From: an uncultured delta proteobacterium
Lineage (GTDB): Bacteria > Desulfobacterota > RBG-13-43-22
Assembly (NCBI GenBank): GCA_963746605.1
Contig: CAVVCH010000061.1
Coordinates: forward strand, 134,441-198,440
Direction: 5' to 3'
Length of the DNA stretch: 64,000 bases
Shown here: positions 4,370 through 60,923 of the stretch, in pieces
Layout: each line of letters begins with the position of its first letter
How positions within the stretch are numbered: position 1 is the first letter of the stretch
Made by a program: the position numbers and the translations under genes
Notes under the pieces: generated by a model
What the model was told of the DNA's origin: nothing
Seen by the model: only the letters and a program-made list of their open reading frames with translations
Database searches by the model: none

Positions 4370-5681
4370 ATGAAACACAAAACACCCCTGCTGGATCAGT
4401 TAGAAAGCGGGCCCTGGCCAAGCTTTGTTTCGGACATCAAGCGGGAGGCCGAATCGCGGGCCAAGAACGAAAAAGGTGTGGATTTCCAGATCCCGGTCGA
4501 GGTTTGTGATGACATTCTGGGGGTGATGGAACTGACCTATGAACAAAAACGGACCCATTGGAAACACGGCGGAATCGTGGGTGTTTTCGGGTACGGCGGC
4601 GGGGTCATCGGCCGTTATTGCGACCAGCCGGAAATGTTTCCCGGCGTGGCCCATTTCCACACCATCCGGGTCAATCAACCGGGCGGGAAATATTATACCA
4701 CCGAATTCCTGAAGAAATTGTGTGATCTTTGGGATAAAAGGGGCAGCGGGCTGACCAACATGCACGGCTCCACCGGTGACATCATCCTCTTAGGGACCTA
4801 TACGCCACCAACTGGAAGAGGTTTTTTATGAGTTGACCCATGACTTCAACCAGGACCTGGGCGGGTCGGGCTCCAACCTGCGGACGCCTGCGGATTGCTT
4901 AGGCATGTCCCGCTGCGAATATGCCTGCTACGATACCATGGCCTTATGTTATGATCTGACCAATGAATACCAGGACTTCCTCCATCGGCCGGCCTTCCCT
5001 TACAAATTCAAATTCAAATTCGACGGCTGCCCCAACTGCTGTGTGGCTTCCATCGCTCGATCCGACATGTCTTTTATAGGAACGTGGCGGGATGACATCA
5101 AGGTCGACCAGGAAGCTGTCAAGGCCTATGTGGGCGGGGAGATTCCGGCCAATGCGGGGGCCTTCAAGGGAAGGGACTGGGGGGCTTTCGATATCAACGC
5201 CGAGGTCATCGACCTCTGCCCCACCAAATGCATGTCCTGGGACGGGAAGAAGCTGGGGATCTATACCCCGGAATGCACCCGCTGCATGCACTGCATCAAC
5301 GTCATGCCCAAGGCCCTGCGGGTGGGTGACGACCGCGGCGTGTCCATCCTGTTGGGCGCTAAAGCCCCTATTCTCGATGGCGCCCAGATGGGTTCCCTGG
5401 TGGTTCCTTTCATGAAAGTGGAGCCGCCCTATACGGAAATAAAAGAATTTATTGAGAAGGTCTGGGATTACTGGATGGAAGAAGGGAAAAACCGGGAACG
5501 CCTGGGCGAACTGATGAAACGTCAGGGTTTCCAGAAACTCTTGGAAGCCACCGGTCTGGAACCGATTCCGCAAATGGTCAAGGAACCCCGGACCAATCCC
5601 TATATTTTCTGGCGGGCGGATGAAGTTCCCGGCGGATTTGAACGCGACATCAAAGAATATCGCAAGCACCATCTGCGTTAG
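4370..5681 (+). pseudogene. dsrA: dissimilatory sulfite reductase alpha subunit DsrA, split by an apparent +1 frameshift near 4806-4811 into ORFs 4370..4831 and 4833..5681. This may be a sequencing artefact.
   Basis: N-terminus [56 protein letters not shown] and siroheme/Fe-S Cys motifs are hallmark DsrA. The 153+282 aa total equals normal DsrA length. Removing one C from ccaccaact restores ...[20 protein letters not shown]... Confidence 0.85.
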
Positions 5682-7255: not shown

Positions 7256-8662
7256 ATGAATTCGCCCCGATTGGTGATGGCCGCCCTCCGCGGTGGAGCC
7301 GGGAAGACCGTGCTTACCATGGGCCTCCTGGCCGCCTGGCACGATCGGGGGATTAAGGTGGTACCCTTTAAGAAGGGTCCGGATTATATCGACGCCGGAT
7401 GGCTGGCCAAAGCGGCCGGACACCCCTGCTATAATCTGGACCCTTTTTTAATGGGGAAAAAGACCCTGCTGTCATCGTTCAAGAAAAGGTTCCTTGAGGG
7501 GGACCTGGCCTTGATTGAGGGCAACCGGGGAATCTTTGATGGGATCGATGCCCAGGGGACCTACAGCACCGCCCAGTTGGCCAAGTGGCTCCGGGTTCCG
7601 GTGGTCCTGATCCTCGACTGCACCAAGGCCACCCGGACCGTGGCGGCTATGGTTCTAGGTTGCCTGGCCTTTGATCCCGACCTGCCCCTAAAGGGGCTGA
7701 TTCTAAACCACATCGTTCGCAGTCGTCACGAGGCGGTTATCCGAAAGACCATCGAGCAGACCTGTGACCTGCCCATCCTGGGGGTGATTCCTCGGATGGG
7801 CGCCGGGCGTCTGCCCGAACGGCATCTGGGTCTGGTGCCTTTTCAGGAGCACCCCGAAGTGGAGCAAACCGTCCGCTTCACCCGGGAGATGGCTGAAAAG
7901 TACCTGGATTTGGCCGGACTCCAGGCCCTGGCCGGCCAGGCCCCGCCGCTGCCGGGGGGGGTGCCCCTTCCGACCGCTAAGGATAAGGGGAGGACGAAAA
8001 GACGTCCCCGGGTTGGAGTGATCCAGGATACGGCGTTTCAGTTCTATTACCCGGAGAACCTGGAAGCTCTGGAAGCCGCCGGGGCCGAGCTGGTTTTTCT
8101 GAATGCCCTTTCCGGGCAATTCCCCGGGAACCTGGAGGCCCTGTACATCGGCGGCGGTTTTCCGGAAACCCAGGCCGCCGACCTTTCCCAAAACAAGGGT
8201 TTTCGAAAAGGCCTGGCCGAGGCCATTGAGGCCGGTCTTCCGGTTTATGCCGAGTGCGGCGGTTTGATGTACCTGGGAAAAACCCTGATTTACCGGGGTG
8301 ACGCCTACCCCATGGTGGGCGTTTTTCCGTTTACCTTTTCACTGGAAAGGAAACCGCAAGGGCACGGCTACACCCGGATCAAGGTGGTCGAAGCCAATCC
8401 CTACTTCCCGCTGGGGACTGTCTTAAAGGGGCATGAATTCCACTATTCCCGGGTGATCGAGGGTGATTTGGAGGTCTGGAAAATGGCTTTTCAGATGAAC
8501 AAGGGGGAAGGATTGGATGGCCGGCGGGATGGCTTGATCTACAAAAATACCCTGGCCACCTATACCCATCTTCATGCCCTGGGAAGCCCGGAATGGGCTC
8601 GGGGTCTGGTTGCCAGGGCCGGGGGGCGCCCGGTTGGAAAAAGTCCTGCGGCCCTGGAATAA
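7256..8662 (+). CDS. dsrN: DsrN, a cobyrinic acid a,c-diamide synthase (CbiA/CobB) family amidase (siroheme amidation)
   Basis: N-terminal P-loop AAxxGAGKT, a CobQ/CbiA-type glutamine amidotransferase domain at the C-terminus (YAECGGLMYLG), and position after dsrD. Confidence 0.8.
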   Translation: MNSPRLVMAALRGGAGKTVLTMGLLAAWHDRGIKVVPFKKGPDYIDAGWLAKAAGHPCYNLDPFLMGKKTLLSSFKKRFLEGDLALIEGNRGIFDGIDAQGTYSTAQLAKWLRVPVVLILDCTKATRTVAAMVLGCLAFDPDLPLKGLILNHIVRSRHEAVIRKTIEQTCDLPILGVIPRMGAGRLPERHLGLVPFQEHPEVEQTVRFTREMAEKYLDLAGLQALAGQAPPLPGGVPLPTAKDKGRTKRRPRVGVIQDTAFQFYYPENLEALEAAGAELVFLNALSGQFPGNLEALYIGGGFPETQAADLSQNKGFRKGLAEAIEAGLPVYAECGGLMYLGKTLIYRGDAYPMVGVFPFTFSLERKPQGHGYTRIKVVEANPYFPLGTVLKGHEFHYSRVIEGDLEVWKMAFQMNKGEGLDGRRDGLIYKNTLATYTHLHALGSPEWARGLVARAGGRPVGKSPAALE

Positions 8663-9175: not shown

Positions 9176-9718
9176 ATGGATCTGAACACATTTTTTAAAG
9201 AAAAAAAGTCTGCTTTCCTAAAACGGTGGTTCAACCTCATCGTGGAAACCTACCCCGATGAGACCACGCGGTTTCTGAAATACCAAAAAGATCGCTTTGC
9301 CAATCCGGTCGGTTATGCCTTGACGCAATCCCTCGACCGGTTATATGAAGAGGTTGTTTCCGGAGTGGACCCCGAGCGGGCCGCTCCGGCCTTGGATCAG
9401 ATTATACGGATTCGAGCCATACAAAACTTTTCCCCCTCCCAGGCGGTCGCCTTCGTCTTTTTTTTGAAAACCGTCATCCGCGATGCCCTGGAGGAGGAGA
9501 TTAGACAATCCGGGATCAAGGAAGAACTGCTGATCATCGAGACCCGCATCGACCAGTTGGCGCTGTTGGCCTTTGATCAGTACATGGCTTGCCGGGAAAA
9601 GCTCTATGACCTCAAGGCCAACGAACTTCGCCGGCAGACCCATCGACTGTTGCAGCGGGCCAAAATTATCGGGGAGCCCCCCGCCTCCGACCTGAACTCC
9701 GAAGAAGGTAACGTTTGA
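9176..9718 (+). CDS. dsrT: DsrT-like protein (RsbRD-N-like conserved protein preceding dsrMKJOP); assignment tentative
   Basis: 180-aa soluble ORF in the position dsrT occupies in dsrTMKJOP clusters of Desulfobacterota and Chlorobi. Called from context and size, not from a motif. Confidence 0.45.
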   Translation: MDLNTFFKEKKSAFLKRWFNLIVETYPDETTRFLKYQKDRFANPVGYALTQSLDRLYEEVVSGVDPERAAPALDQIIRIRAIQNFSPSQAVAFVFFLKTVIRDALEEEIRQSGIKEELLIIETRIDQLALLAFDQYMACREKLYDLKANELRRQTHRLLQRAKIIGEPPASDLNSEEGNV

Positions 9719-9748: not shown

Positions 9749-10777
9749 ATGAATTTCATACTCAGTTTAATCATAGCGCTTGTGGTTGTTAACGTCCTGG
9801 TTATGATCCCCCTGGTAGGAATACTGGCGGCCAATATGCAATTTCTGTTCGGGGTGATCCTTCCCTACGCGGCGGTGCTGATTTTCCTGATCGGAATGAT
9901 CTGGCGGGTCACCACCTGGGCCAAGGCCCCGGTTCCCTTCCGGATCCCTACCACGGCGGGACAGCAAAAGACACTGCCCTGGATCAAGGACAGTAAATTG
10001 GACAACCCCACCACCACCGCCGGCGTCGTGGGGCGCATGCTCCTGGAAGTCCTGCTCTTTCGGTCGCTCTTCCGGAATACCAAAATGGAATACCGCGAAG
10101 GCCCCCGGGTCACCTATGAATGGGAAAAATGGTTGTGGCTGTTTGCGCTCGTTTTTCATTATGCCTTCCTGGTGGTTTTGATCCGGCATCTTCGTTTTTT
10201 TACCGAGCCCGTGCCGGTCTTCGTTCAAATCCTGGAATCGCTGGACGGTTTTGTCCAGATGGGGATCGCCCCCTTAAACGGACTGGGACTGCCGGTGATG
10301 CTGCTCAGCGGAGTGGTCCTCCCGGCGGCCGTTACCTTTCTGTTGCTTCGTCGCCTGCTGGTTCCCAGTGTCCGTTATATTTCCCTTCCGGCCGATTACT
10401 TTCCCCTGCTTCTGATCCTCGGCATTGCCACCACCGGAATTCTGATGCGGTACCTCCTTAAATTGGACGTGGTCGGCGTCAAACAGTTGATGATCGGTCT
10501 GGTGACCTTCAAGCCCGTGGTGCCCCAGGGGATCGGGGTCCTTTTTTATATCCATCTATTTATGATCTGCACCCTTTTTGCCTATTTTCCCTTCAGCAAG
10601 CTGGTCCATCTGGGCGGCATCTTTCTCAGCCCGACCCGTAACCTGGCCAACAACAACCGGATGGTCCGCCACGTGAACCCCTGGTGGTATCCGGTCAAGG
10701 TGCACACCTATGAACATTACGAGGATGAATTCCGAGAAAAAATGATTGAGGCTGGAATCCCAGTGGAAAAGGAGTAA
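9749..10777 (+). CDS. dsrM: DsrM, membrane di-haem b subunit (NarI-like)
   Basis: 342 aa, multiple TM helices with conserved His, good RBS AAAGGAGAGGG, followed directly by dsrK. Confidence 0.85.
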   Translation: MNFILSLIIALVVVNVLVMIPLVGILAANMQFLFGVILPYAAVLIFLIGMIWRVTTWAKAPVPFRIPTTAGQQKTLPWIKDSKLDNPTTTAGVVGRMLLEVLLFRSLFRNTKMEYREGPRVTYEWEKWLWLFALVFHYAFLVVLIRHLRFFTEPVPVFVQILESLDGFVQMGIAPLNGLGLPVMLLSGVVLPAAVTFLLLRRLLVPSVRYISLPADYFPLLLILGIATTGILMRYLLKLDVVGVKQLMIGLVTFKPVVPQGIGVLFYIHLFMICTLFAYFPFSKLVHLGGIFLSPTRNLANNNRMVRHVNPWWYPVKVHTYEHYEDEFREKMIEAGIPVEKE

Positions 10778-10779
10778 TC

Positions 10780-12417
10780 ATGGCCTTCAAGAATATTCCC
10801 AAGCCCAATGAATTAGCCCAGATCGGCCATAATCCCCCCTCGATGAAGGGCTGGATGGATGTCCCAGCGGATATCCGGCCGGGGATGTTTTGTTACGCCG
10901 GTCAGCCTAAGAATTTGGAGGCGGTGGGCCTGCCCAATCCGCGGAAATGGGCTCCGACCGATGACGACTGGCAACTGCCCGACAACTGGAAAGAGATATT
11001 CCTGGAGGGCATGCGGGAACGGTTGAAGAAGTATCGCACCTTCCAGATCTTCATGGACATCTGCGTCCGCTGCGGGGCCTGCGCGGACAAGTGCCATTTT
11101 TTCATCGGCTCCGGGGATCCTAAAAACATGCCGGTCCTGCGGGCCGAGCTGTTGCGCTCTATCTACCGGCGGGAGTTCACCGTCGCCGGAAAGCTGCTGG
11201 GAAAGATGGCCGGTGCCCGGGAGCTGACTCCCGAGGTATTGAAGGAAATCTGGCATTACATGTTCCAGTGTACGGAGTGCCGCCGCTGTTCCCTCTTCTG
11301 CCCCTACGGCATCGACACCGCTGAAATCACGATTATCGGCCGGGAATTGCTCAACCTGCTGGGGTTGAACATCGACTGGATCGCCGGGCCCGTGGCCAAC
11401 TGTTACCGGAAAGGAAATCACCTGGGCATCGAGCCCCATGCCTTTAAAGACATGATCGAGTTTTTCCTCGATGAGGTCGAGGGCGTTTGTGGGATCCGGC
11501 CGGAGCCGACCTTTAACCGCAAAGGGGCTGAAATCCTGTTCGTCACCCCTTCGGGTGACGTCTTTGCCGACCCCGGGACTTATACCGCCATGGGCTACCT
11601 GATGCTCTTCCATCAATTGGGACTGGATTACACCTGGAGCACCTATGCCTCCGAAGGCGGGAACTTCGGGTTTTTCACCTCCAATGAAATGGCCCAGCGG
11701 TTGAATTATAAGATCTACGCCGAGGCCAAACGCCTGGGGGTCAAATGGATCCTGGGCGGCGAGTGCGGCCACATGTGGCGCCTGATCCATCAATACATGG
11801 ACACCTGGAACGGGCCGGCGGATTTCCTGGAGGAACCGGTGTCGCCCATCACCGGGACTAAATTTGAAAATGCCAAGGCCACCAAGATGGTCCATTTGGT
11901 GGAGTTCACCGCCGACCTGATCCGGAACGGCAAATTGAAGCTGGATCCCAGCCGCAACGACAACCTGCGGGTCACGTTTCATGACTCCTGCAACACCGCC
12001 CGAGGCATGGGATTTTTCGAAGAGCCTCGATATGTCATCAAACACGTCTGTAATAATTTTTTTGAAATGCCGGAAAACACGATCCGGGAGCAGACCTTCT
12101 GCTGCGGCAGCGGCTCCGGGCTGAACGCCGGTGAGGATATGGAGCTGCGGATGCGGGGCGGGTTTCCCCGGGCCAATGCCGTCCGCTTCGTTCACGATAG
12201 GTTTGGGGTCAATATGCTGGCTAATATCTGCGCCATCGACCGGGCAGCCTTATCCACTTCCATGGAATATTGGGTTCCGGAGGTAGGGGTCACCGGGGTT
12301 CACGAGATGGTGGCCAATGCCCTGATCATGGACGGCGAAGGGGAGCGGACCACCGATCTGCGCGGGGAACCCCTGCCTGGATTCGAGGAAAAGGAGGAGG
12401 GCGAAGAAGATGTATGA
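10780..12417 (+). CDS. dsrK: DsrK, HdrD-like Fe-S catalytic subunit with CCG domains
   Basis: 545 aa with CVRCGACADKC, CTECRRCSLFCP and C-terminal CCG-type Cys motifs (TFHDSCNTARG, TFCCGSGSG). Confidence 0.9.
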   Translation: MAFKNIPKPNELAQIGHNPPSMKGWMDVPADIRPGMFCYAGQPKNLEAVGLPNPRKWAPTDDDWQLPDNWKEIFLEGMRERLKKYRTFQIFMDICVRCGACADKCHFFIGSGDPKNMPVLRAELLRSIYRREFTVAGKLLGKMAGARELTPEVLKEIWHYMFQCTECRRCSLFCPYGIDTAEITIIGRELLNLLGLNIDWIAGPVANCYRKGNHLGIEPHAFKDMIEFFLDEVEGVCGIRPEPTFNRKGAEILFVTPSGDVFADPGTYTAMGYLMLFHQLGLDYTWSTYASEGGNFGFFTSNEMAQRLNYKIYAEAKRLGVKWILGGECGHMWRLIHQYMDTWNGPADFLEEPVSPITGTKFENAKATKMVHLVEFTADLIRNGKLKLDPSRNDNLRVTFHDSCNTARGMGFFEEPRYVIKHVCNNFFEMPENTIREQTFCCGSGSGLNAGEDMELRMRGGFPRANAVRFVHDRFGVNMLANICAIDRAALSTSMEYWVPEVGVTGVHEMVANALIMDGEGERTTDLRGEPLPGFEEKEEGEEDV

Positions 12418-12806
12418 CAGCGGCAAGATCATCACGGGGATAGTCATTTTCGTCATTCTGGTGACTTTTCCGATCTGGTACAATCTGGGTCGGGCCACGC
12501 CGCCACCGGATCCCAAAATTGATACCCCGGTCATTCAGGCGCTGGCGGAAAAGAAGTGTATCGAACCGAAAAGCCAGATGAAATACACCCATATGAAGAT
12601 TCTGGATGAATGGCGCCATACGGTCGTGCGGACCCAGGAGCGGATTTATACGGCCGCCGACGGGAAGACAGTATGATATGAGCCTTCAGAATACCTGTAT
12701 GAAATGCCATTCCAACAAAAGCCAGTTCTGCGATCAGTGCCATAATTATTTGCAGGTCAAACCCTATTGCTGGGATTGCCACATCGCGCCAAAGGAGAAA
12801 AAGTAA
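12410..12806 (+). pseudogene. dsrJ: DsrJ tri-haem cytochrome c, interrupted by an apparent +1 frameshift near 12670-12676 (ORFs 12410..12676 and 12606..12806); possibly a sequencing artefact
   Basis: The N-terminal TM anchor plus ...TAADGKTV are in frame 2. Three CxxCH motifs (CMKCH, CDQCH, CWDCH) follow in frame 0. Combined length ~132 aa fits DsrJ. Confidence 0.8.
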
Positions 12807-13582
12807 TGGGCCTCAATCGAAGAGATTTCCTGAAAATAGCCGGGATTTCCAGCCTCATGGGGCTGGGAGGGAAGGCGGCGCTGGAGGTCCTCCGGCCGGG
12901 GGAGTTGGAGGCGTCCCTGCCCCTCGCCCCTCCGATCGCAGCCAAGCACTGGGCCATGGTCATCGATACCCGGAAGCTTAAAACCGAAGAAGATTTTCAG
13001 CGGTGTATCGATGCCTGCCACCGGACGCACAATGTGCCCAAAATTCCCAGTGCCAAGGAAGAAATCAAGTGGATTTGGACGGAGGCCTATAAAAACGCCT
13101 TTCCCGACGATGAACACGAATACGTAGCCGAAGCGGTGGAGCATAAAAAGTTTTTAACCTTCTGCAACCACTGCACCAATCCCCCTTGTGTCCGGGTTTG
13201 TCCCACCAAGGCCACTTTTAAACGGGCCGACGGGATCGTCATGATGGACTTTCACCGGTGCATCGGCTGCCGGTTCTGTATGGCCGGCTGTCCCTACGGT
13301 TCCCGGAGTTTCAACTGGGGGGACCCGCGCCGTTACCTCAAGGAACCCACCAATCCGGCTTTTCCAACGCGCGCCAAGGGGGTGGTGGAGAAATGTAATT
13401 TCTGTGAGGATCGTTTGGCCAAGGGACAAAATCCGGCCTGTGTGGAGGCCTCCAACGGGGCCCTGGTGTTCGGCGATTTAGCCAATCCGAATTCCGAGGT
13501 CAGGAAGCTGCTGAAAGAGAATTATTCGATTCGCCGTAAACCCGGTCTGGGAACGTATCCCAACCTTTTCTATTTGGTATGA
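12806..13582 (+). CDS. dsrO: DsrO, periplasmic Fe-S subunit with a Tat signal
   Basis: MGLNRRDFLKIAG twin-arginine signal and four-Cys ferredoxin motifs (CNHCTNPPCVRVCP, CIGCRFCMAGCP, CNFCEDR). The start overlaps the dsrJ stop (TAATG). Confidence 0.85.
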   Translation: MGLNRRDFLKIAGISSLMGLGGKAALEVLRPGELEASLPLAPPIAAKHWAMVIDTRKLKTEEDFQRCIDACHRTHNVPKIPSAKEEIKWIWTEAYKNAFPDDEHEYVAEAVEHKKFLTFCNHCTNPPCVRVCPTKATFKRADGIVMMDFHRCIGCRFCMAGCPYGSRSFNWGDPRRYLKEPTNPAFPTRAKGVVEKCNFCEDRLAKGQNPACVEASNGALVFGDLANPNSEVRKLLKENYSIRRKPGLGTYPNLFYLV

Positions 13583-13589
13583 GGTGGTT

Positions 13590-14759
13590 ATGTTCGAGAA
13601 AGCGCTTACAGGAAGCAAGGGATATTATACATGGTTGGCCTTCTTGGGGATTTTTATCGCCACCGGAGTGGCCTGCTACCTCTATCAATTTAACGAGGGC
13701 CTGCGCATCACCGGATTGAGCCGGGATGTCTCCTGGGGTTTCTATATCGCCCAATTTACCTTTCTGGTCGGGGTGGCGGCGTCGGCGGTCATGCTGGTGT
13801 TGCCCTATTACCTGCATGACGTCAAGGTTTTTGGCAAGATTACCATCCTGGGTGAATTCCTGGCCATCGCTTCGGTGACCATGTGTCTGCTTTTTATCTT
13901 TGTGGACCTCGGCAACCCCGTGCGGATCTTGAACGTCATCCTCTACCCGACGCCCAATTCCATCCTCTTCTGGGATATGATCGTGCTGAACGTGTATTTG
14001 ATCCTCAATATCCTGATCGGCTGGAATGTCCTGGCTGCGGAACGCAAGGCCGTGGCCCCGCCCCGATGGGTCACCCCCCTGATCTACCTTTCCATCCCCT
14101 GGGCCGTCAGCATTCACACGGTCACGGCGTTCCTCTACGCCGGCCTTCCGGGGCGCCATTTCTGGCTCAGCGCCATTATGGCGGTCCGCTTTCTGGGGTC
14201 GGCCTTTGCCGCCGGCCCGGCCCTGCTGGTGCTCCTGGCCCTGATCGTCCGCCGGGCCACCGGGTTTGATGCCGGCAACGAGGCCCTGAAAAAATTGATC
14301 AACATCATCACCTACGCCATGCTGGCCAGTATCTTCTTCGTCATCCTGGAGCTATTCACCGCCTTCTACAGCCAGATCCCGGGTCATATGCATGCCTTCC
14401 AATATCTCTTCTGGGGATTGGAAGGCCATAACAAATACACCACCTGGACCTGGATTTCCGTGTGCATGGGGCTGACCTCGGCCCTGCTGCTGGTCATCCC
14501 CTGGACCCGGAACAAGATGGGTATTGCCGCCATAGCCTGCTTCGGCGTGTTTGGTTCCTTGTGGATTGAAAAGGGGCTCACCCTGGTGGTCACCGGCTTT
14601 ATCCCCAACCCGCTGGAAAAGGTGGTCGAATATGCCCCCACCGCCCCGGAGATTTTCATCGCCTTGGGGGTCTGGGCCACCGGTTTTCTGGTGTTGACCC
14701 TCTTGTATAAGATTGCCATCTCCGTAAAGCTGGATCCCAACAGCGCTTCTGTACATTAA
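13590..14759 (+). CDS. dsrP: DsrP, NrfD/PsrC-like integral membrane subunit
   Basis: ~390 aa, about ten predicted TM helices, last gene of dsrMKJOP. ATG 13590 preferred over GTG 13584 because of SD spacing. Confidence 0.85.
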   Translation: MFEKALTGSKGYYTWLAFLGIFIATGVACYLYQFNEGLRITGLSRDVSWGFYIAQFTFLVGVAASAVMLVLPYYLHDVKVFGKITILGEFLAIASVTMCLLFIFVDLGNPVRILNVILYPTPNSILFWDMIVLNVYLILNILIGWNVLAAERKAVAPPRWVTPLIYLSIPWAVSIHTVTAFLYAGLPGRHFWLSAIMAVRFLGSAFAAGPALLVLLALIVRRATGFDAGNEALKKLINIITYAMLASIFFVILELFTAFYSQIPGHMHAFQYLFWGLEGHNKYTTWTWISVCMGLTSALLLVIPWTRNKMGIAAIACFGVFGSLWIEKGLTLVVTGFIPNPLEKVVEYAPTAPEIFIALGVWATGFLVLTLLYKIAISVKLDPNSASVH

Positions 14760-17973: not shown

Positions 17974-18974
17974 AGAGCGCCGTCGACTTTTCAGATTTCC
18001 CGCGCCTGGATCGGATGGTGGCTGCGCTGGGAGCCGTCTTCCTTCTTTTTTTCCCCTGGATACCCCATTCCTCTTTCGCCATGACCACCATGATCCAGTT
18101 TCTGATGTTCAGCACCTACGGGATGGGCTGGAATACTATCGGCGGCTACGGCGGGCAGGTGGATCTGGGGAAAGCCCAATACGTGGGCATCGGGGCCTAT
18201 ACCACCGCGGTGATGCTGATCCGCTGGGATGTCCCCTTTTGGGTCTCCATGCCCATCGGGTTGGGTCTTTCGGTGGGCTGGTCGTTTCTGATCGGGTATC
18301 CCCTGTTTCGGTTGAAGGGGCATTATTTCGCCATCGCCACCATTGCCACCTCTCTGGTTCTGAAGGACGTTTTCGAGGTCTGGAATTTTTTGGGCGCCTC
18401 CCGGGGGCTGGAGATTTCCCCCATCAAGTACCAACCCCCCGACTTCCTGCGGCTGATTTTCCGGAGCGACGTTCCCTACTATTATATTATGCTGGGCATC
18501 TTTTTCCTCGGGCTCCTGATCATCAACTGGTTCAGAAAATCGCGTTTAGGTTTTCAACTGCGGTCGATCAAAGATAATGAGGATATCGCCCGTTCGCTGG
18601 GCATCGATGTCCATTGGGCCAAGATCAAGACCTATGCCGTGGCTACGGCTTTCGTCAGCGTGGTCGGTTCGTTTCATGCCTGTTACATCAAAAACATCGA
18701 ACCGGAAGATACGATGAGTCTGGATATCTCGGTGCTCATCGCCTTGATGGCCATGCTGGGCGGAGCCGGTTCTCTCTGGGGTCCGGTTATCGGGGCGGCC
18801 ATTCTGATCCCCATGAAAAGCTACTTCAAGGAATGGCTCGGTGCCCAGGCCGGACTGGTTGGATTGGACCTGATCCTTTATAGTGCTATTATCATGCTGG
18901 TAGCCGCCGTGGAGCCCCGGGGCATCTGGGGGTTCGTGGAAAAGGCCCGGAGAAAAAAAAGAAGCCAACCATGA
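17961..18974 (+). CDS. livM: branched-chain amino acid ABC transporter permease (LivM-like)
   Basis: Multi-TM permease that overlaps the livH end and precedes the ATPase genes. Confidence 0.8.
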   Translation: MEAVKSAVDFSDFPRLDRMVAALGAVFLLFFPWIPHSSFAMTTMIQFLMFSTYGMGWNTIGGYGGQVDLGKAQYVGIGAYTTAVMLIRWDVPFWVSMPIGLGLSVGWSFLIGYPLFRLKGHYFAIATIATSLVLKDVFEVWNFLGASRGLEISPIKYQPPDFLRLIFRSDVPYYYIMLGIFFLGLLIINWFRKSRLGFQLRSIKDNEDIARSLGIDVHWAKIKTYAVATAFVSVVGSFHACYIKNIEPEDTMSLDISVLIALMAMLGGAGSLWGPVIGAAILIPMKSYFKEWLGAQAGLVGLDLILYSAIIMLVAAVEPRGIWGFVEKARRKKRSQP

Positions 18975-19862: not shown

Positions 19863-20567
19863 ATGCTGGAAGTACAAAACATAGAGGTCCGCTATTCCGG
19901 TCTGCCGGTGATCCAGGATATTTCCCTGAACGTCAGGGAAGGGGAGCTGGTTTCCGTGGTGGGGGGAAATGGGGCCGGCAAATCCACTCTGTTCAAGGCC
20001 ATTATGGGGGTCTTGAGGCCCACTCGGGGAGAGATCACCTTCCGGGGCGAGACGGTGTCCGGGAAGACCACGGCGGAAATAGTTCGTCGAGGGGTCGTCT
20101 GTATCCCGGAGGACCGGAAACTTTTCCGTCCCCTTTCGGTGGAAGAAAACCTGCACCTGGGTGCTTATATTCTCAAGGATCGGCATCAGCACCTGACCTT
20201 GATGGAGGAAGTCTTCGCCCTTTTCCCCCGCCTGAAGGAACGGCGCCGTCAGCCGGCGGCCACCCTGTCCGGCGGGGAACAGCAGATGCTGGCCATCGGG
20301 CGGGGACTCATGGCCGATCCGAAACTTCTGCTCCTGGATGAACCTTCCCTGGGGCTGGCCCCTTTATTGGTGGACGAGGTCTTCAAAGTGGTTAAGAAAC
20401 TGAAGGAGCGGGGCATGACCATTCTGCTGGTGGAACAAAATGTCCGGGAGGCCCTGGAGATATGCAGCCGGGGTTATATCCTGCAAACCGGGAGGATCGT
20501 TCAGGAAGGGACCGGAACCGAACTTCTTCAAAGCAACGCCGTCCGGAAGGCTTTTCTGGGGTTATAG
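19863..20567 (+). CDS. livF: ABC transporter ATP-binding protein (LivF-like)
   Basis: Walker A GGNGAGKST, signature LSGGEQQMLAIGRGL and Walker B LLLLDEPS. Confidence 0.85.
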   Translation: MLEVQNIEVRYSGLPVIQDISLNVREGELVSVVGGNGAGKSTLFKAIMGVLRPTRGEITFRGETVSGKTTAEIVRRGVVCIPEDRKLFRPLSVEENLHLGAYILKDRHQHLTLMEEVFALFPRLKERRRQPAATLSGGEQQMLAIGRGLMADPKLLLLDEPSLGLAPLLVDEVFKVVKKLKERGMTILLVEQNVREALEICSRGYILQTGRIVQEGTGTELLQSNAVRKAFLGL

Positions 20568-20577
20568 GGGGCGGGGT

Positions 20578-21258
20578 TTGGAATACGAGGCCCCTAAAAT
20601 CCTTCTCTGCGGCGACCAGGCTGTGAGCGTTGAATTCGGGGACAGCATCGACCCGAAAATAAACCGCAAGGTTCTTCAGTTTTTTGAACGGCTCCGCTCC
20701 CGACCTGTCCCCGGGATCAAGGATCTGATACCCAGTTATCGATCCCTCCTGGTTCAGTATGACCCGCTGAATCTCTCCGCCGAGACGTTGGTGAAGAGCC
20801 TCAGGAAGGAGCTGGCCGGCATAGGGCCGGCGATTTCCGAAACGGGACGGACGATCACGATTCCGGTTTACTACGGCGGATCCTTCGGACCGGACCTGGC
20901 GGAGGTGGCCGAGTACCATGGAATGACCCCGGCGGAAGTCATCGCCCTTCATGCGGCAGTCACGTATCGGGTCTACATGATCGGGTTCAGTCCGGGCTTT
21001 CCTTTTCTAGGGGGGTTGGATCCCCGCCTGTATACGCCCAGAAAAAAAACTCCCCGGGAAAAAGTGCCGGCCGGCAGTGTGGGTATTGCCAATCAGCAAA
21101 CCGGCATCTATTCTCTGGACAGTCCCGGAGGCTGGCGATTGATCGGCCGGACACCGATAAAACTCTTCGATCTTTCCAGGGAAGAACCGTTGCTCCTCGG
21201 GGTCGGCGACCGGGTTCTTTTCCAACCGATTACGGAAAAAGAATTTGACGACGATTAG
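20578..21258 (+). CDS. pxpB: 5-oxoprolinase subunit B (PxpB / KipI / allophanate hydrolase subunit 1 family)
   Basis: KILLCGDQAVSVEFGDSIDP... IPVYYGG...GFSPGFPFLGGLD is characteristic of PxpB. Probable TTG start at 20578 just after livF. Confidence 0.7.
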   Translation: MEYEAPKILLCGDQAVSVEFGDSIDPKINRKVLQFFERLRSRPVPGIKDLIPSYRSLLVQYDPLNLSAETLVKSLRKELAGIGPAISETGRTITIPVYYGGSFGPDLAEVAEYHGMTPAEVIALHAAVTYRVYMIGFSPGFPFLGGLDPRLYTPRKKTPREKVPAGSVGIANQQTGIYSLDSPGGWRLIGRTPIKLFDLSREEPLLLGVGDRVLFQPITEKEFDDD

Positions 21259-27515: not shown

Positions 27516-27810
27516 ATGGACGATGTGTATAAAAACAATGCCCCCCGGGAATTCCCAACCCTCAAGCCCAACCGGAAATCAAGGAGAAAAAAGCCGTCAG
27601 GCTGGAGACGATGAAAGTCTCCGAGCTTAAGGAAACAGTGTCCCGCTGGAAGAAGGATATCCTGGACCGTATTCAGTTTCTGAAGGAGAATTATGACCAG
27701 GCTCTACAGGACAAGGGAGCGTTGACTTGGAGGTGGATAAGTGGAAGGCCGAACTGACCGCTTCGGAATTCCGGGTCCAGGAACTGGAAAGACAATCGTG
27801 GCCGAGGTGA
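27516..27810 (+). pseudogene. decayed coiled-coil ORF readable only across three frames (…EIKEKKAVRLETMKVSELKETVSRWKKDILDRIQFLKENYDQALQDKGALT / LEVDKWKAELTASEFRVQELERQSWPR)
   Basis: A protein-like heptad sequence is split by at least two frameshifts. No intact ORF longer than 50 aa. Confidence 0.3.
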
Positions 27811-27939
27811 TGGAAGACCTATAAAGTAATTTACTCAAGGGAGGTAACGCCGGCGCCTTGCTTCAAGGAAGTAGTACCGGCGCTTTGCAGAGATTACGAT
27901 TGCAGGCGGCGTTCCAGAATGGGGTGCAGGATTATCGAT

Positions 27940-28040
27940 TCTTACACCCTCCGTCCAGCGCCGAATTCGGTGATGTCAGGGACGACCACGTCGCTGTGCA
28001 GGGAGCGGCTAATCCGCTATGGTTGGTCTTGGTCGATTCC
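27940..28040 (-). pseudogene. acyl-CoA dehydrogenase gene fragment (~35 codons), paralogous to the N-terminal region of the ACAD at 29219..30361, with an internal frameshift
   Basis: ~80% nucleotide identity to 30061-30130. Encodes ...TKTNHSGLAAP then, in another frame, LHSDVVVPDITEFG, against ACAD TKTNHSGLAAPLHSDVVVPYLTEFG. Confidence 0.5.
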
Positions 28041-28554
28041 GGTGGATGGAAAGCCAGGGGTAAGGGGAGGTTGAAAATGGAATGTTTATCCTGATACTTA
28101 AGGTGGTTCGTCTGGCAATATAAGCCCCCATCAATATTATTGTGGTGCCGACGGCTGAGCCAACCAGGCCATTGGACCGCGATGGTGCGCACATGGGCCT
28201 TGGCCCGGCACGCTCGGGCCATGGTCAACCGATTGACGTCTCGTCCAAAGACAGAGGAGGTGCGGATGATTACCGTATTACAGGATACTGCAAAGCCAAA
28301 CTCGGACGAAGGCAGATCTATGAGCACCGCGAAGAAGACGAGGTACAGGATTGGCTCGGAAGACGCGGCTTCAAGACGGGACCAGTAGATTGGCACTGGA
28401 AGATACAGCTGAATGGATTCAAGAGTTCAGCGATCTATGGAACCGAGAATCAGGGGCTAGGTCCTGAAAGAGGAGCGCAATGGCAACAAGCCAATCCGGC
28501 CGACTCCGACCAATATTGATGATTTTCTCGTTGGATTTCAGAAAGAATGAACCG

Positions 28555-28897
28555 ATGAAGATTATCTCAAACCGTGCCGCCATCATCGTCAGGGCGAAAG
28601 CTCCTTTTGTTGAGTGGGTTCAAAGCGCCGATGCCGACAGCTCCCATATCACTACCGAGGAAGTCAACGAAGACCCTAACGTATACTTGATCTACGATCC
28701 AAAGAAGGAAGGCGAGATCGACATCGATTGATCGCGAAGAACTATCGTGAGATTTTCGAAGAGGAATTGAATAGCTGGTTCACAGACGAGTCCTGTGGCC
28801 AGAAGAGGGACCTTAAAACATTCCGGCAATGGTTTCAGGTTGATTTCCATGGCATGGTGGTAGATCTCAGCGAAGAAGACTTCTACACCGAAGAATG
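28555..28897 (+). pseudogene. hypothetical ~113-aa ORF interrupted by a frameshift/stop near 28728-28735 (MKIISNRAAIIVRAKAPFVEW...GEIDID | IAKNYREIFEEELNSWFTDESCGQ...)
   Basis: Two consecutive protein-like segments in different frames. No family recognised. Confidence 0.3.
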
Positions 28898-28930
28898 AAA
28901 AAATCGAGCCGCTTGACTACCTTCGCCATA

Positions 28931-29213
28931 TCAAGGTGGAGGTAGAGTCGGCGCCCTGCCTTGACTACCTAAAAATTTTCCTGTGTCTTTAAAAAAGTCG
29001 CTGATATAGGAGATTTTTCCCTCCTCGAACTCCATCAGGGTCACCCCCTCATTCTCGTAGGGTTCCCCGCGTCGGTTTTTCCCTCGATTGCTCCAATGGA
29101 CCGCTCCCCGGTTCCCCTGAACAATGGTCCGGTGAACGGTGAAGACCAACTCCGGGTATTGGCGGAAGAGGATCTGGAGTGAAAAAGTCAGAAATGAGTT
29201 TTTCGGCATTCAC
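28931..29213 (-). pseudogene. SnoaL-like/NTF2-fold protein remnant whose N-terminal segment (GTG start, NAEKLISDFFTPD) is in a different frame from the body; short and likely disrupted
   Basis: C-terminal ...GEPYENEGVTLMEFEEGKISYISDFFKDTG matches the SnoaL-like C-terminus. A frame change near 29170. Starts 5 nt after the ACAD stop. Confidence 0.35.
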
Positions 29214-29218
29214 AGCGG

Positions 29219-30361
29219 CTACAATCCCATCATCTTGGCCACGATGGTCTTCATGATCTCGTTGGTGCCGGCAAAGATGGACATGACCCGCACGTCCCGC
29301 CAGGCGCGGGCAATGGGGTATTCCTCGCAGTAGCCGTAACCGCCGTGGAGCTGGAGGCATTCGTCGGCTACGCGTCGGGCCATTTCGGTGGTCCAATATT
29401 TGGCCATGGAGACCTCGGTGACCACATTTTTTCCCTCCAGATGGTCGGCGATCAGTTTGTCCAGGAAGGTGCGCCCCAGCTTGACCTCGGTGGCCATCTC
29501 CACGATCTTGAACTGGTTGACCTGAAACTTGGAGATCGGTCTGCCGAAGGCGGTGCGTTCCTTCGTATACTTGATGGTTAAATCCAACATATGTTCCGCC
29601 CCGGCGACGGCGGCGATGGCGCACATCAGCCGTTCCTGCTGGAGCTTCTGCATCAGCATGATAAAGCCGGTCCCCTTAAGGCCCAATCGATTGCCTTTGG
29701 GGATGCGACAGTCGGTGAAATAGAGCTCGGCCGTATCCTGGCTGTGCCAGCCGATTTTTTTTATTTTTTTGCCTTTTTCAAAACCGGGGGTCCCGGCCTC
29801 CACCAGGAAGAGGTCGATGGCCTGGTAGGGTTCGCTGACCTCGGGGTCCCGGGCGGCCAGAACCAGCAGGTCGCAGTTGATTCCGTTGCTGATAAAGGTT
29901 TTCTGGCCGTTGAGGATCAATTCGTCCCCCGCTTCCACCGCCGTGGTCCGGATGGCCGCCAGATCGCTTCCCGTGTTGGGCTCGGTCATGGCGATGGCGG
30001 TGATGAGGTCCCCGGAACAGCAGCCGGGCAGGTATTTCCTTTTCATTTCTTCCGTGCCGAATTCGGTAAGGTAAGGGACGACCACATCACTGTGCAAGGG
30101 GGCGGCCAAGCCACTGTGGTTGGTCTTGGTCAATTCCTCACAGACGATCACGGAATAGAGAAAGTCGGCCCCGGACCCGCCGTATTCCTCCGGGACCATG
30201 GGGCAGAGAAAACCCTGGTCGCCCATCTTCTTCCAGGCGCTTCGGGGGACGATCCCCGCTTCTTCCCATTCGTCAATATAGGGAATCACCTCTTTTTCAA
30301 AAAACTTCCGTAAGGCGTCGCGAAAGATGCGGTGTTCTTCGGTATAGTGTAAAATGTCCAT
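29219..30361 (-). CDS. acyl-CoA dehydrogenase
   Basis: 380 aa with ...TEPNTGSDLAAIRTTA..., ...ISNG... and a C-terminal ...HGGYGYCEEYPIARAWRDVRVMSIFAGTNEIM (catalytic Glu in the YGY..E context). Confidence 0.85.
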   Translation of the reverse strand: MDILHYTEEHRIFRDALRKFFEKEVIPYIDEWEEAGIVPRSAWKKMGDQGFLCPMVPEEYGGSGADFLYSVIVCEELTKTNHSGLAAPLHSDVVVPYLTEFGTEEMKRKYLPGCCSGDLITAIAMTEPNTGSDLAAIRTTAVEAGDELILNGQKTFISNGINCDLLVLAARDPEVSEPYQAIDLFLVEAGTPGFEKGKKIKKIGWHSQDTAELYFTDCRIPKGNRLGLKGTGFIMLMQKLQQERLMCAIAAVAGAEHMLDLTIKYTKERTAFGRPISKFQVNQFKIVEMATEVKLGRTFLDKLIADHLEGKNVVTEVSMAKYWTTEMARRVADECLQLHGGYGYCEEYPIARAWRDVRVMSIFAGTNEIMKTIVAKMMGL

Positions 30362-43056: not shown

Positions 43057-44272
43057 AAGGGGGACGAGACTGATGGGCAAGAAGAAATTTGAACGGACGA
43101 AGCCACATGTGAATGTGGGGACGATCGGGCATATTGATCATGGGAAGACGACCTTGACGGCGGCGATCACGCTCTGTTTATCGAAGAGCGGATTTGCGAA
43201 TTTCATACCCTTTGACGAGATCGACAAGGCGCCGGAAGAGAAGGAGCGGGGGATCACGATCGCGACGGCCCACGTGGAATACGAGACCAAGAAGCGGCAT
43301 TATGCGCACGTGGACTGTCCGGGGCACGCGGACTATATCAAGAACATGATCACCGGAGCGGCTCAGATGGACGGAGCGATTCTGGTGGTTGGAGCGGATG
43401 ACGGGCCGATGCCGCAGACGCGGGAGCATATATTGCTGGGACGTCAGGTCGGAGTGCCGTATATAGTAGTTTTTTTAAACAAGGTGGACATGGTCGACGA
43501 TCCGGAGCTGATCGAGCTGGTGGAACTGGAGCTGCGGGAGCTGTTGAGCAAGTATGAGTATCCCGGGGACGATATACCGATCATCAAGGGATCGGCGCTG
43601 AAGGCCTTGGAGTGCGGCTGCGGGAAAGGGGACTGTCCTGCCTGCCAGCCGATATTGGAGCTGATGGACGCGATCGACAACTATGTACCGGAGCCGGTGC
43701 GGGATATAGAGAAGCCGTTTTTGATGCCGGTGGAGGACGTCTTCAGTATTTCGGGCCGGGGGACGGTCGTCACGGGCCGGGTGGAACGGGGGATGATCAA
43801 GGTTGGTGAGGAAGTGGAGATCGTGGGGATTCGCCCGACGATCAAGACGATCTGCACCGGGGTGGAGATGTTCCGGAAGACCCTGGACCAGGGCCAGGCG
43901 GGAGACAACGTGGGGTTGCTGCTGCGGGGGACCAAGCGGGACGATGTGGAGCGGGGCCAGGTCGTGGCCAAGACGGGATCGATCACGCCGCACACCAAGT
44001 TCAAGGCGGAATCGTATATTCTGTCGAAAGAGGAAGGCGGGCGGCACACGCCGTTTTTCAACGGCTATCGGCCGCAGTTTTATTTTCGGACGACGGACGT
44101 GACCGGGGTGGTGACCTTGCCGGAAGGGGTGGAGATGGTGATGCCGGGCGACAACGTGTCGATGACGGTGTCCTTGATCATGCCCATCGCCATGGAGAAG
44201 GAACTGCGGTTTGCCATTCGGGAGGGGGGCCGGACCGTAGGCGCCGGCGTGATCTCCGAAATCTTGGAATAA
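43057..44272 (+). repeat. ~1.2-kb near-identical direct repeat (tuf copy 1); partner at 59708..60923
   Basis: Identity begins 16 nt upstream of the ATG (AAGGGGGACGAGACTG) and ends at the stop codon. At least three synonymous substitutions. Confidence 0.9.
43073..44272 (+). CDS. tuf: elongation factor Tu (copy 1, tufB-like position after the tRNA operon)
   Basis: [28 protein letters not shown]-domain motifs. 399 aa. Confidence 0.97.
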
Positions 44273-59723: not shown

Positions 59724-60923
59724 ATGGGCAAGAAGAAATTTGAACGGACGAAGCCACATGTGAATGTGGGGACGATCGGGCATATTGATCATGGGAAGAC
59801 GACCTTGACGGCGGCGATCACGCTCTGTTTATCGAAGAGCGGATTTGCGAATTTCATACCCTTTGACGAGATCGACAAGGCGCCGGAAGAGAAGGAGCGG
59901 GGGATCACGATCGCGACGGCCCACGTGGAATACGAGACCAAGAAGCGGCATTATGCGCACGTGGACTGTCCGGGGCACGCGGACTATATCAAGAACATGA
60001 TCACCGGAGCGGCTCAGATGGACGGAGCGATTCTGGTGGTTGGAGCGGATGACGGGCCGATGCCGCAGACGCGGGAGCATATATTGCTGGGACGTCAGGT
60101 CGGAGTGCCGTATATAGTAGTTTTTTTAAACAAGGTGGACATGGTCGACGATCCGGAGCTGATCGAGCTGGTGGAACTGGAGCTGCGGGAGCTGTTGAGC
60201 AAGTATGAGTATCCCGGGGACGATATACCGATCATCAAGGGATCGGCGCTGAAGGCCTTGGAGTGCGGCTGCGGGAAAGGGGACTGTCCTGCTTGCCAGC
60301 CGATTTTGGAGCTGATGGACGCGATCGACAACTATGTACCGGAGCCGGTGCGGGATATAGAGAAGCCGTTTTTGATGCCGGTGGAGGACGTCTTCAGTAT
60401 TTCGGGCCGGGGGACGGTCGTCACGGGCCGGGTGGAACGGGGGATGATCAAGGTTGGTGAGGAAGTGGAGATCGTGGGGATTCGCCCGACGATCAAGACG
60501 ATCTGCACCGGGGTGGAGATGTTCCGGAAGACCCTGGACCAGGGCCAGGCGGGAGACAACGTGGGGTTGCTGCTGCGGGGGACCAAGCGGGACGATGTGG
60601 AGCGGGGCCAGGTCGTGGCCAAGACGGGATCGATCACGCCGCACACCAAGTTCAAGGCGGAATCGTATATTCTGTCGAAAGAGGAAGGCGGGCGGCACAC
60701 GCCGTTTTTCAACGGCTATCGGCCGCAGTTTTATTTTCGGACGACGGACGTGACCGGGGTGGTGACCTTGCCGGAAGGGGTGGAGATGGTGATGCCGGGC
60801 GACAACGTGTCGATGACGGTGTCCTTGATCATGCCCATCGCCATGGAGAAGGAACTGCGGTTTGCCATTCGGGAGGGGGGCCGGACCGTAGGTGCCGGCG
60901 TGATCTCCGAAATCTTGGAATAA
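59724..60923 (+). CDS. tuf: elongation factor Tu (copy 2, tufA-like position after fusA)
   Basis: Protein identical to copy 1. Nucleotide differences seen are synonymous (e.g. gcc/gct, ata/att, ggc/ggt). Confidence 0.97.

Follow-up and report, generated by a model that had tools for sequence, protein, structure and literature searches.

DsrJ is the membrane-anchored trihaem cytochrome c subunit of the DsrMKJOP complex (PMC10861901). In the 64,000-nucleotide stretch of DNA that was analysed (hereafter the window), its gene lies in two pieces in different reading frames, with the membrane anchor in one and the three haem-binding motifs in the other. This raises the question of whether the locus represents a novel split or recoded gene, a gene that was truly inactivated, or an intact gene that is misrepresented in the deposited sequence. 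The split was first noticed in a sequence-only reading of the window, all of whose coordinates, namely those of the 88-aa ORF, its TGA, the CxxCH motifs and the dsrO start, were borne out by our analysis. The features of the locus are these:

12410..12676, plus strand: 5' part of dsrJ, an ATG-initiated ORF of 88 aa (MYDSGKIITGIVIFVILVTFPIWYNLG...TAADGKTV) ending at TGA 12674-12676.
12667, plus strand: base inserted in dsrJ, a G inside the Lys86 codon AAA, in the context CGGGAA[G]ACAG.
12669..12806, plus strand: 3' part of dsrJ in the +1 frame, from Gln87 to TAA 12804-12806.
12696-12710, 12729-12743 and 12768-12782, plus strand: haem motifs CMKCH, CDQCH and CWDCH, respectively, in the 3' part of dsrJ.

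The 5' piece contains an N-terminal hydrophobic anchor spanning residues 7-24 and a sole cysteine, C50, which is invariant across 18 aligned DsrJ sequences and corresponds to the Cys50 proposed as a haem axial ligand of DsrJ (PMC10861901). Its final two codons (ACA GTA) and the TGA are out of frame and were created by the insertion, while at the other end of the gene the TAA at 12804-12806 is overlapped by the dsrO ATG at 12806-12808. We compared the pieces with NF038038, the NCBIfam DsrJ equivalog model, which has 121 positions and a cutoff of 100 bits. The 5' piece matched positions 1-84 with 95 bits and the 3' piece positions 87-121 with 61.9 bits, each alone falling below the cutoff, and the joined protein scored 178 bits with positions 1-121 of 121 covered. 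Given these complementary matches, the two pieces are one dsrJ broken near profile position 85-86, in agreement with what the sequence-only reading had proposed. That reading had also put the combined length at ~132 aa and judged it suitable for DsrJ; the corrected protein has 131 aa, the same as its closest orthologs.

The corrected product resembles the DsrJ family, known from Archaeoglobus fulgidus, Desulfovibrio desulfuricans and Allochromatium vinosum (see PMC10861901 for a review), in its full profile coverage, its anchor, the conserved Cys50 and the three CxxCH motifs, as well as in its location between dsrK and dsrO, where stop and start codons overlap, in a dsrM-dsrK-dsrJ-dsrO-dsrP context. 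It differs from the family in that the window ORF is broken after codon 86 by one added base; the single uninterrupted ORF typical of DsrJ is thus wanting in the window, where the gene is split at 12667, and is found in the two same-species contigs described below. A comparison of DsrJ with solved structures by sequence yielded no match.

Removal of G12667 from the window restores a 396-nt ORF, which is identical at 396 of 396 nucleotides to the dsrJ of two contigs, L011 (Ga0566175_0086881; 99.0% identity to the window over 2391 nt) and L012 (Ga0590173_0153592; 99.6% identity over 1658 nt). These were taken as the same species as the window and come from two further JGI metagenomes, whose assembly was independent of it. 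Both carry CGGGAAACAG at the site and encode an intact 131-aa DsrJ. G12667 is the sole gap in both alignments (2.39 kb for L011 and 1.66 kb for L012), and exact identity extends over 840-951 nt of the left flank and 183-456 nt of the right. At the same place five relatives with 85-91% DNA identity (L001, L002, L004, L005 and L010) have GGGAAG-CAG against GGGAAGACAG in the window, the extra G being absent from all seven related sequences at the dsrJ site. The added base lies within CGGGAAGACAG and, relative to the more distant relatives, can equivalently be taken as A12668. Thus, the +1-type disruption that had been claimed between the two pieces comes down to a single extra base. The region of the split had been recognized correctly but its exact spot had not, as the indel lies 4-13 nt upstream of GTATGATATG (12671-12680). 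The junction aligns with a conserved segment of DsrJ homologs of the form ...DGK-[Q/E/K..]-[Y/F]-x-[M/I/K]-SLQN....

We also scanned genome and metagenome contigs with the pattern GACGGGAAG-N{0,1}-CAG..., which is unable to match the same-species AAA allele, and recovered only relatives of ~90% identity, none of them with the insertion. The JGI contigs that span the site (L005, L011 and L012) and the k141-named ENA contig L001, probably a short-read assembly, have intact genes there. Furthermore, the corrected 131-aa DsrJ is present verbatim in JGI, Logan and ENA assemblies, and the truncated products (the 88-aa DsrJ and a 153-aa DsrA) are recorded only from a single 331,705-bp NCBI/ENA contig, evidently the source of the window. 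Judging from these comparisons, the dsrJ lesion is one G inserted into the AAA codon of Lys86 and private to the window's assembly.

The gene belongs to an operon that runs dsrA, dsrB, dsrD, dsrN (a CbiA-type amidase), dsrC, a gene for an RsbRD_N-domain protein, dsrM, dsrK, dsrJ, dsrO and dsrP, followed downstream by a glyoxalase gene and then a branched-chain amino-acid ABC transporter. Its members relevant here are:

4370..5681, plus strand: dsrA, split into ORFs of 153 aa and 282 aa by an insertion, G4804, in the context TATAC[G]CCACC; 436 aa when corrected.
9176..9718: RsbRD_N-domain protein, occupying the DsrT position.
9749..10777, plus strand: dsrM, 342 aa, intact.
10780..12417, plus strand: dsrK, 545 aa, intact and in one frame, with 94% amino acid identity to the L002 DsrK and an 8-nt overlap with the dsrJ start.
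12806..13582, plus strand: dsrO, 258 aa, intact, with the Tat-type N-terminus MGLNRRDFLK.
13584..14759, plus strand: dsrP, ~389 aa, NrfD family, intact.

This is an ordinary reductive-type dsrABDNCT-dsrMKJOP operon of an uncultured Thermodesulfobacteriota (deltaproteobacterial) population, and from dsrA to dsrP the window is syntenic with L002, a 181-kb MAG contig. When 20 proteins of L002 were searched against the window with tblastn, all but DsrJ and DsrA aligned in a single frame; the frame changed at 12663-12667 in DsrJ and at 4794-4804 in DsrA. Hence dsrJ is indeed the second gene of the module with a +1 lesion, as had been noted from the sequence, the other being dsrA, split at 4804. G4804 is missing in L005, L002 and L010, which are relatives and not same-species DNA. 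In the DsrA homolog cluster the closest member has 97.9% amino acid identity, with none nearer, and the contig anchored on DsrD ends before the dsrA site. The DsrJOP module is missing from many Gram-positive and archaeal sulfate reducers and is therefore not essential in every case; the core enzyme is DsrAB (PMC10861901). Accordingly, a real lesion in dsrA would outweigh one in dsrJ for the organism.

To look for gene decay, we aligned the window, L005, L004 and L002 and counted the codon changes found in one lineage only. Across dsrB to dsrO, with the mis-framed dsrA row excluded, the ratio of private non-synonymous to synonymous changes on the window branch is 34:168, compared with 19:63 in L005, 27:121 in L004 and 70:198 in L002. 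The window dsrJ has 11 private synonymous changes and no non-synonymous one, and does not differ by a single substitution from the same-species contigs. The part of the window dsrA 3' of its frameshift shows 8 non-synonymous and 40 synonymous changes. We found neither relaxed selection nor accumulating lesions on the window lineage, the ratios being like or below those of the relatives and the lesions confined to dsrA and dsrJ. These counts show normal purifying selection on the window branch, and the lack of a decay signal means that any inactivation is either extremely recent or not real.

We consider it probable that the dsrJ split is an assembly or consensus error and not a new gene architecture. 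The organism's real dsrJ would then be intact, a normal 131-aa gene for a membrane-anchored trihaem cytochrome c. The added G12667 shifts the frame inside the Lys86 codon, so that TGA 12674-12676 is reached two codons on and the three haem-binding motifs are stranded in the +1 frame. The extra G most likely arose as an error when the consensus of a long-read metagenome assembly was built or polished, and G4804 in dsrA most likely had the same origin. The window's contig was probably assembled from Nanopore reads, going by the platform of its relatives: the long contigs nearest to it belong to Microflora Danica MAGs, which bear the label 'uncultured delta proteobacterium' and were assembled with Flye from Nanopore reads alone and polished once with Medaka (PMC12313526).

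Several of the related assemblies contain breaks of their own in the same operon. In L004 a private deletion removes 1 nt of dsrN at a G/A run (aligned to window position 7455). L010 has another such deletion in a G run of dsrO (10396-10494; window position 12868), which cuts the called gene to 225 aa, and in L013 (10001-19242) dsrA is in three pieces and both dsrM and dsrO are split. These private breaks in related Nanopore assemblies favour a technical source. The bases themselves bear on the matter as well, both insertions being a G placed between two non-G bases within a homotrimer (AA[G]A in dsrJ and C[G]CC in dsrA, by comparison with relatives). Replication slippage usually yields a duplication of the neighbouring base, and a non-duplicative insertion of G is atypical of it; the form of the two insertions thus argues against spontaneous slippage. 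From these observations we infer a technical origin rather than a real mutation, and by our estimate data of this kind could plausibly retain two indel errors per 64 kb.

In being isolated one-base indels that are private to an assembly and break a conserved ORF, with sister assemblies showing differing private breaks in the same operon, the window lesions are like the residual indel errors of Nanopore-only MAGs (MFD-LR, Flye and Medaka; PMC12313526). They differ from them in context, which is a 3-nt run in the window (GGGAAA and ACCC) and not a long homopolymer. The position of the insertions outside long homopolymers, the classical context of Nanopore errors, speaks against an error, as does the fact that both frame-breaking indels fall in the dsr cluster, ~10 kb out of 64 kb, for which the probability under uniformly random errors is ~3%. 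Two lesions in one pathway are rather what would be expected of a real pathway inactivation.

Such an inactivation would mean that the insertions in dsrA and dsrJ are true, and that the window represents a very recent, strain-specific null allele in which dissimilatory sulfite reduction has just been lost, the first inactivated gene having rendered the second lesion neutral. We regard this as unlikely, while noting that it accounts directly for both lesions sharing one pathway when the other genes tested (among them rpoB, rpoC, fusA and the two tuf copies) are intact, and that the lesion does stand in the deposited sequence, from which truncated products were annotated. However, the window dsrJ is otherwise identical in nucleotide sequence to intact same-species alleles, and non-synonymous changes are as few in proportion to synonymous ones as in the relatives, even downstream of both frameshifts. 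The non-duplicative nature of the G insertions and the occurrence of similar private breaks at other positions in the related Nanopore assemblies likewise point away from it. It is more doubtful still that a population has just knocked out both its catalytic subunit (dsrA) and its periplasmic cytochrome (dsrJ) while siblings at 99-99.6% identity keep the intact gene. If the insertions were real, they would offer a snapshot of the first steps by which a free-living Thermodesulfobacteriota lineage of soil or sediment loses its ability to reduce sulfate or sulfite. Such a recent disappearance of dissimilatory sulfite reduction, in a species where the other members have retained the pathway, would be of moderate ecological interest.

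We also considered that the consensus had merged two alleles in tandem, with AAG and AAA giving AAGA in dsrJ, and ACG and ACC giving ACGC in dsrA. The dsrJ site fits such a merger, as AAA is found in the same-species sequences and AAG in other species.

Programmed +1 frameshifting of the prfB type at GUA UGA U, or a natural two-cistron arrangement with a stop at TGA 12674 and a restart at ATG 12678, is highly improbable, and we rejected both as there is no conservation, no codon that allows re-pairing and no stimulatory structure. The likeness to prfB is limited to a change into the +1 frame just before a UGA: the UGA is close 3' of the shift site, and a product of 131 aa would likewise result from a +1 shift at GUA-UGA. 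That product, however, would have Thr-Val in place of the conserved Gln and Tyr/Phe. Unlike prfB-type systems, the window has no conserved shift site and no slippery or re-pairing codon, as the Val-tRNA reading GUA cannot re-pair on UAU, nor the Lys-tRNA reading AAG on AGA. Moreover, shuffled sequence folds just as well as the RNA downstream of the site (z = +0.44). A restart could draw on the in-frame ATG at 12678, 1 nt past the stop, but the heme group of c-type cytochromes is attached on the periplasmic side in the course of cytochrome c maturation, and a separate C-terminal piece without the signal anchor could not reach the periplasm for this. Neither arrangement is conserved in orthologs or within the species. 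A natural stop/restart ortholog had been named in the sequence-only reading as one observation that would overturn its view of the split, and none came to light: the best 120 of 1524 DsrJ homologs are all single proteins of 131-153 aa, and the same-species and related loci are uninterrupted ORFs.

Whether artefact or real mutation, there is nothing mechanistically new at dsrJ, and the main value of the case is as a quality flag. Annotation at face value would score the genome as lacking functional DsrA and DsrJ, and a probable reducer of sulfate or sulfite would be misclassified. Public protein collections already contain the truncated products of 88 aa and 153 aa, and dsr annotations from related Nanopore MAG assemblies need careful reading.

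No further splits were seen among the genes tested across the 64 kb of the window, and rpoB (1388 aa), rpoC (1365 aa), fusA and two copies of tuf are uninterrupted ORFs. A codon-usage frame plot pointed to six other same-strand candidate junctions, with genes that include RuvC/RuvA/RuvB, Nitro_FeMo-Co and NifU_N, and a PAS histidine kinase. These were ruled out as frameshifts, since Pfam matches identified them as separate full-length genes. The tuf copies, at 43073-44272 and 59724-60923, are 1200 nt each and differ at 3 positions. One of them lies after a tRNA-Thr/Tyr/Gly/Thr cluster and the other after fusA, which is the usual tufA/tufB arrangement, homogenised by gene conversion.

Elsewhere in the window, a region of ~1.5 kb with low coding potential (27757-29219) extends from a ParA-like gene to an acyl-CoA dehydrogenase gene. 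It includes an 81-nt, frame-broken relic (27960-28040) that is ~85% identical to part of the acyl-CoA dehydrogenase gene (30056-30137), and, on the minus strand, a 92-aa ORF (28931-29209) that matches only the C-terminal half of the SnoaL_2 domain. The relic and the half-domain ORF look like remnants of an old rearrangement. A 25-nt inverted repeat with 88% complementarity (27789-27813 and 29227-29251), one arm of which falls within the acyl-CoA dehydrogenase gene at its 3' end, may be another paralog fragment in the opposite orientation. Finally, a 272-aa ORF with good coding potential is located on the plus strand at 20440-21258, just 5' of a CT_A_B gene (allophanate hydrolase subunit 2-like). 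At the corresponding place L002 has a 140-aa call on the minus strand (18047-18469), which may be spurious, or else L002 may itself be frameshifted there.
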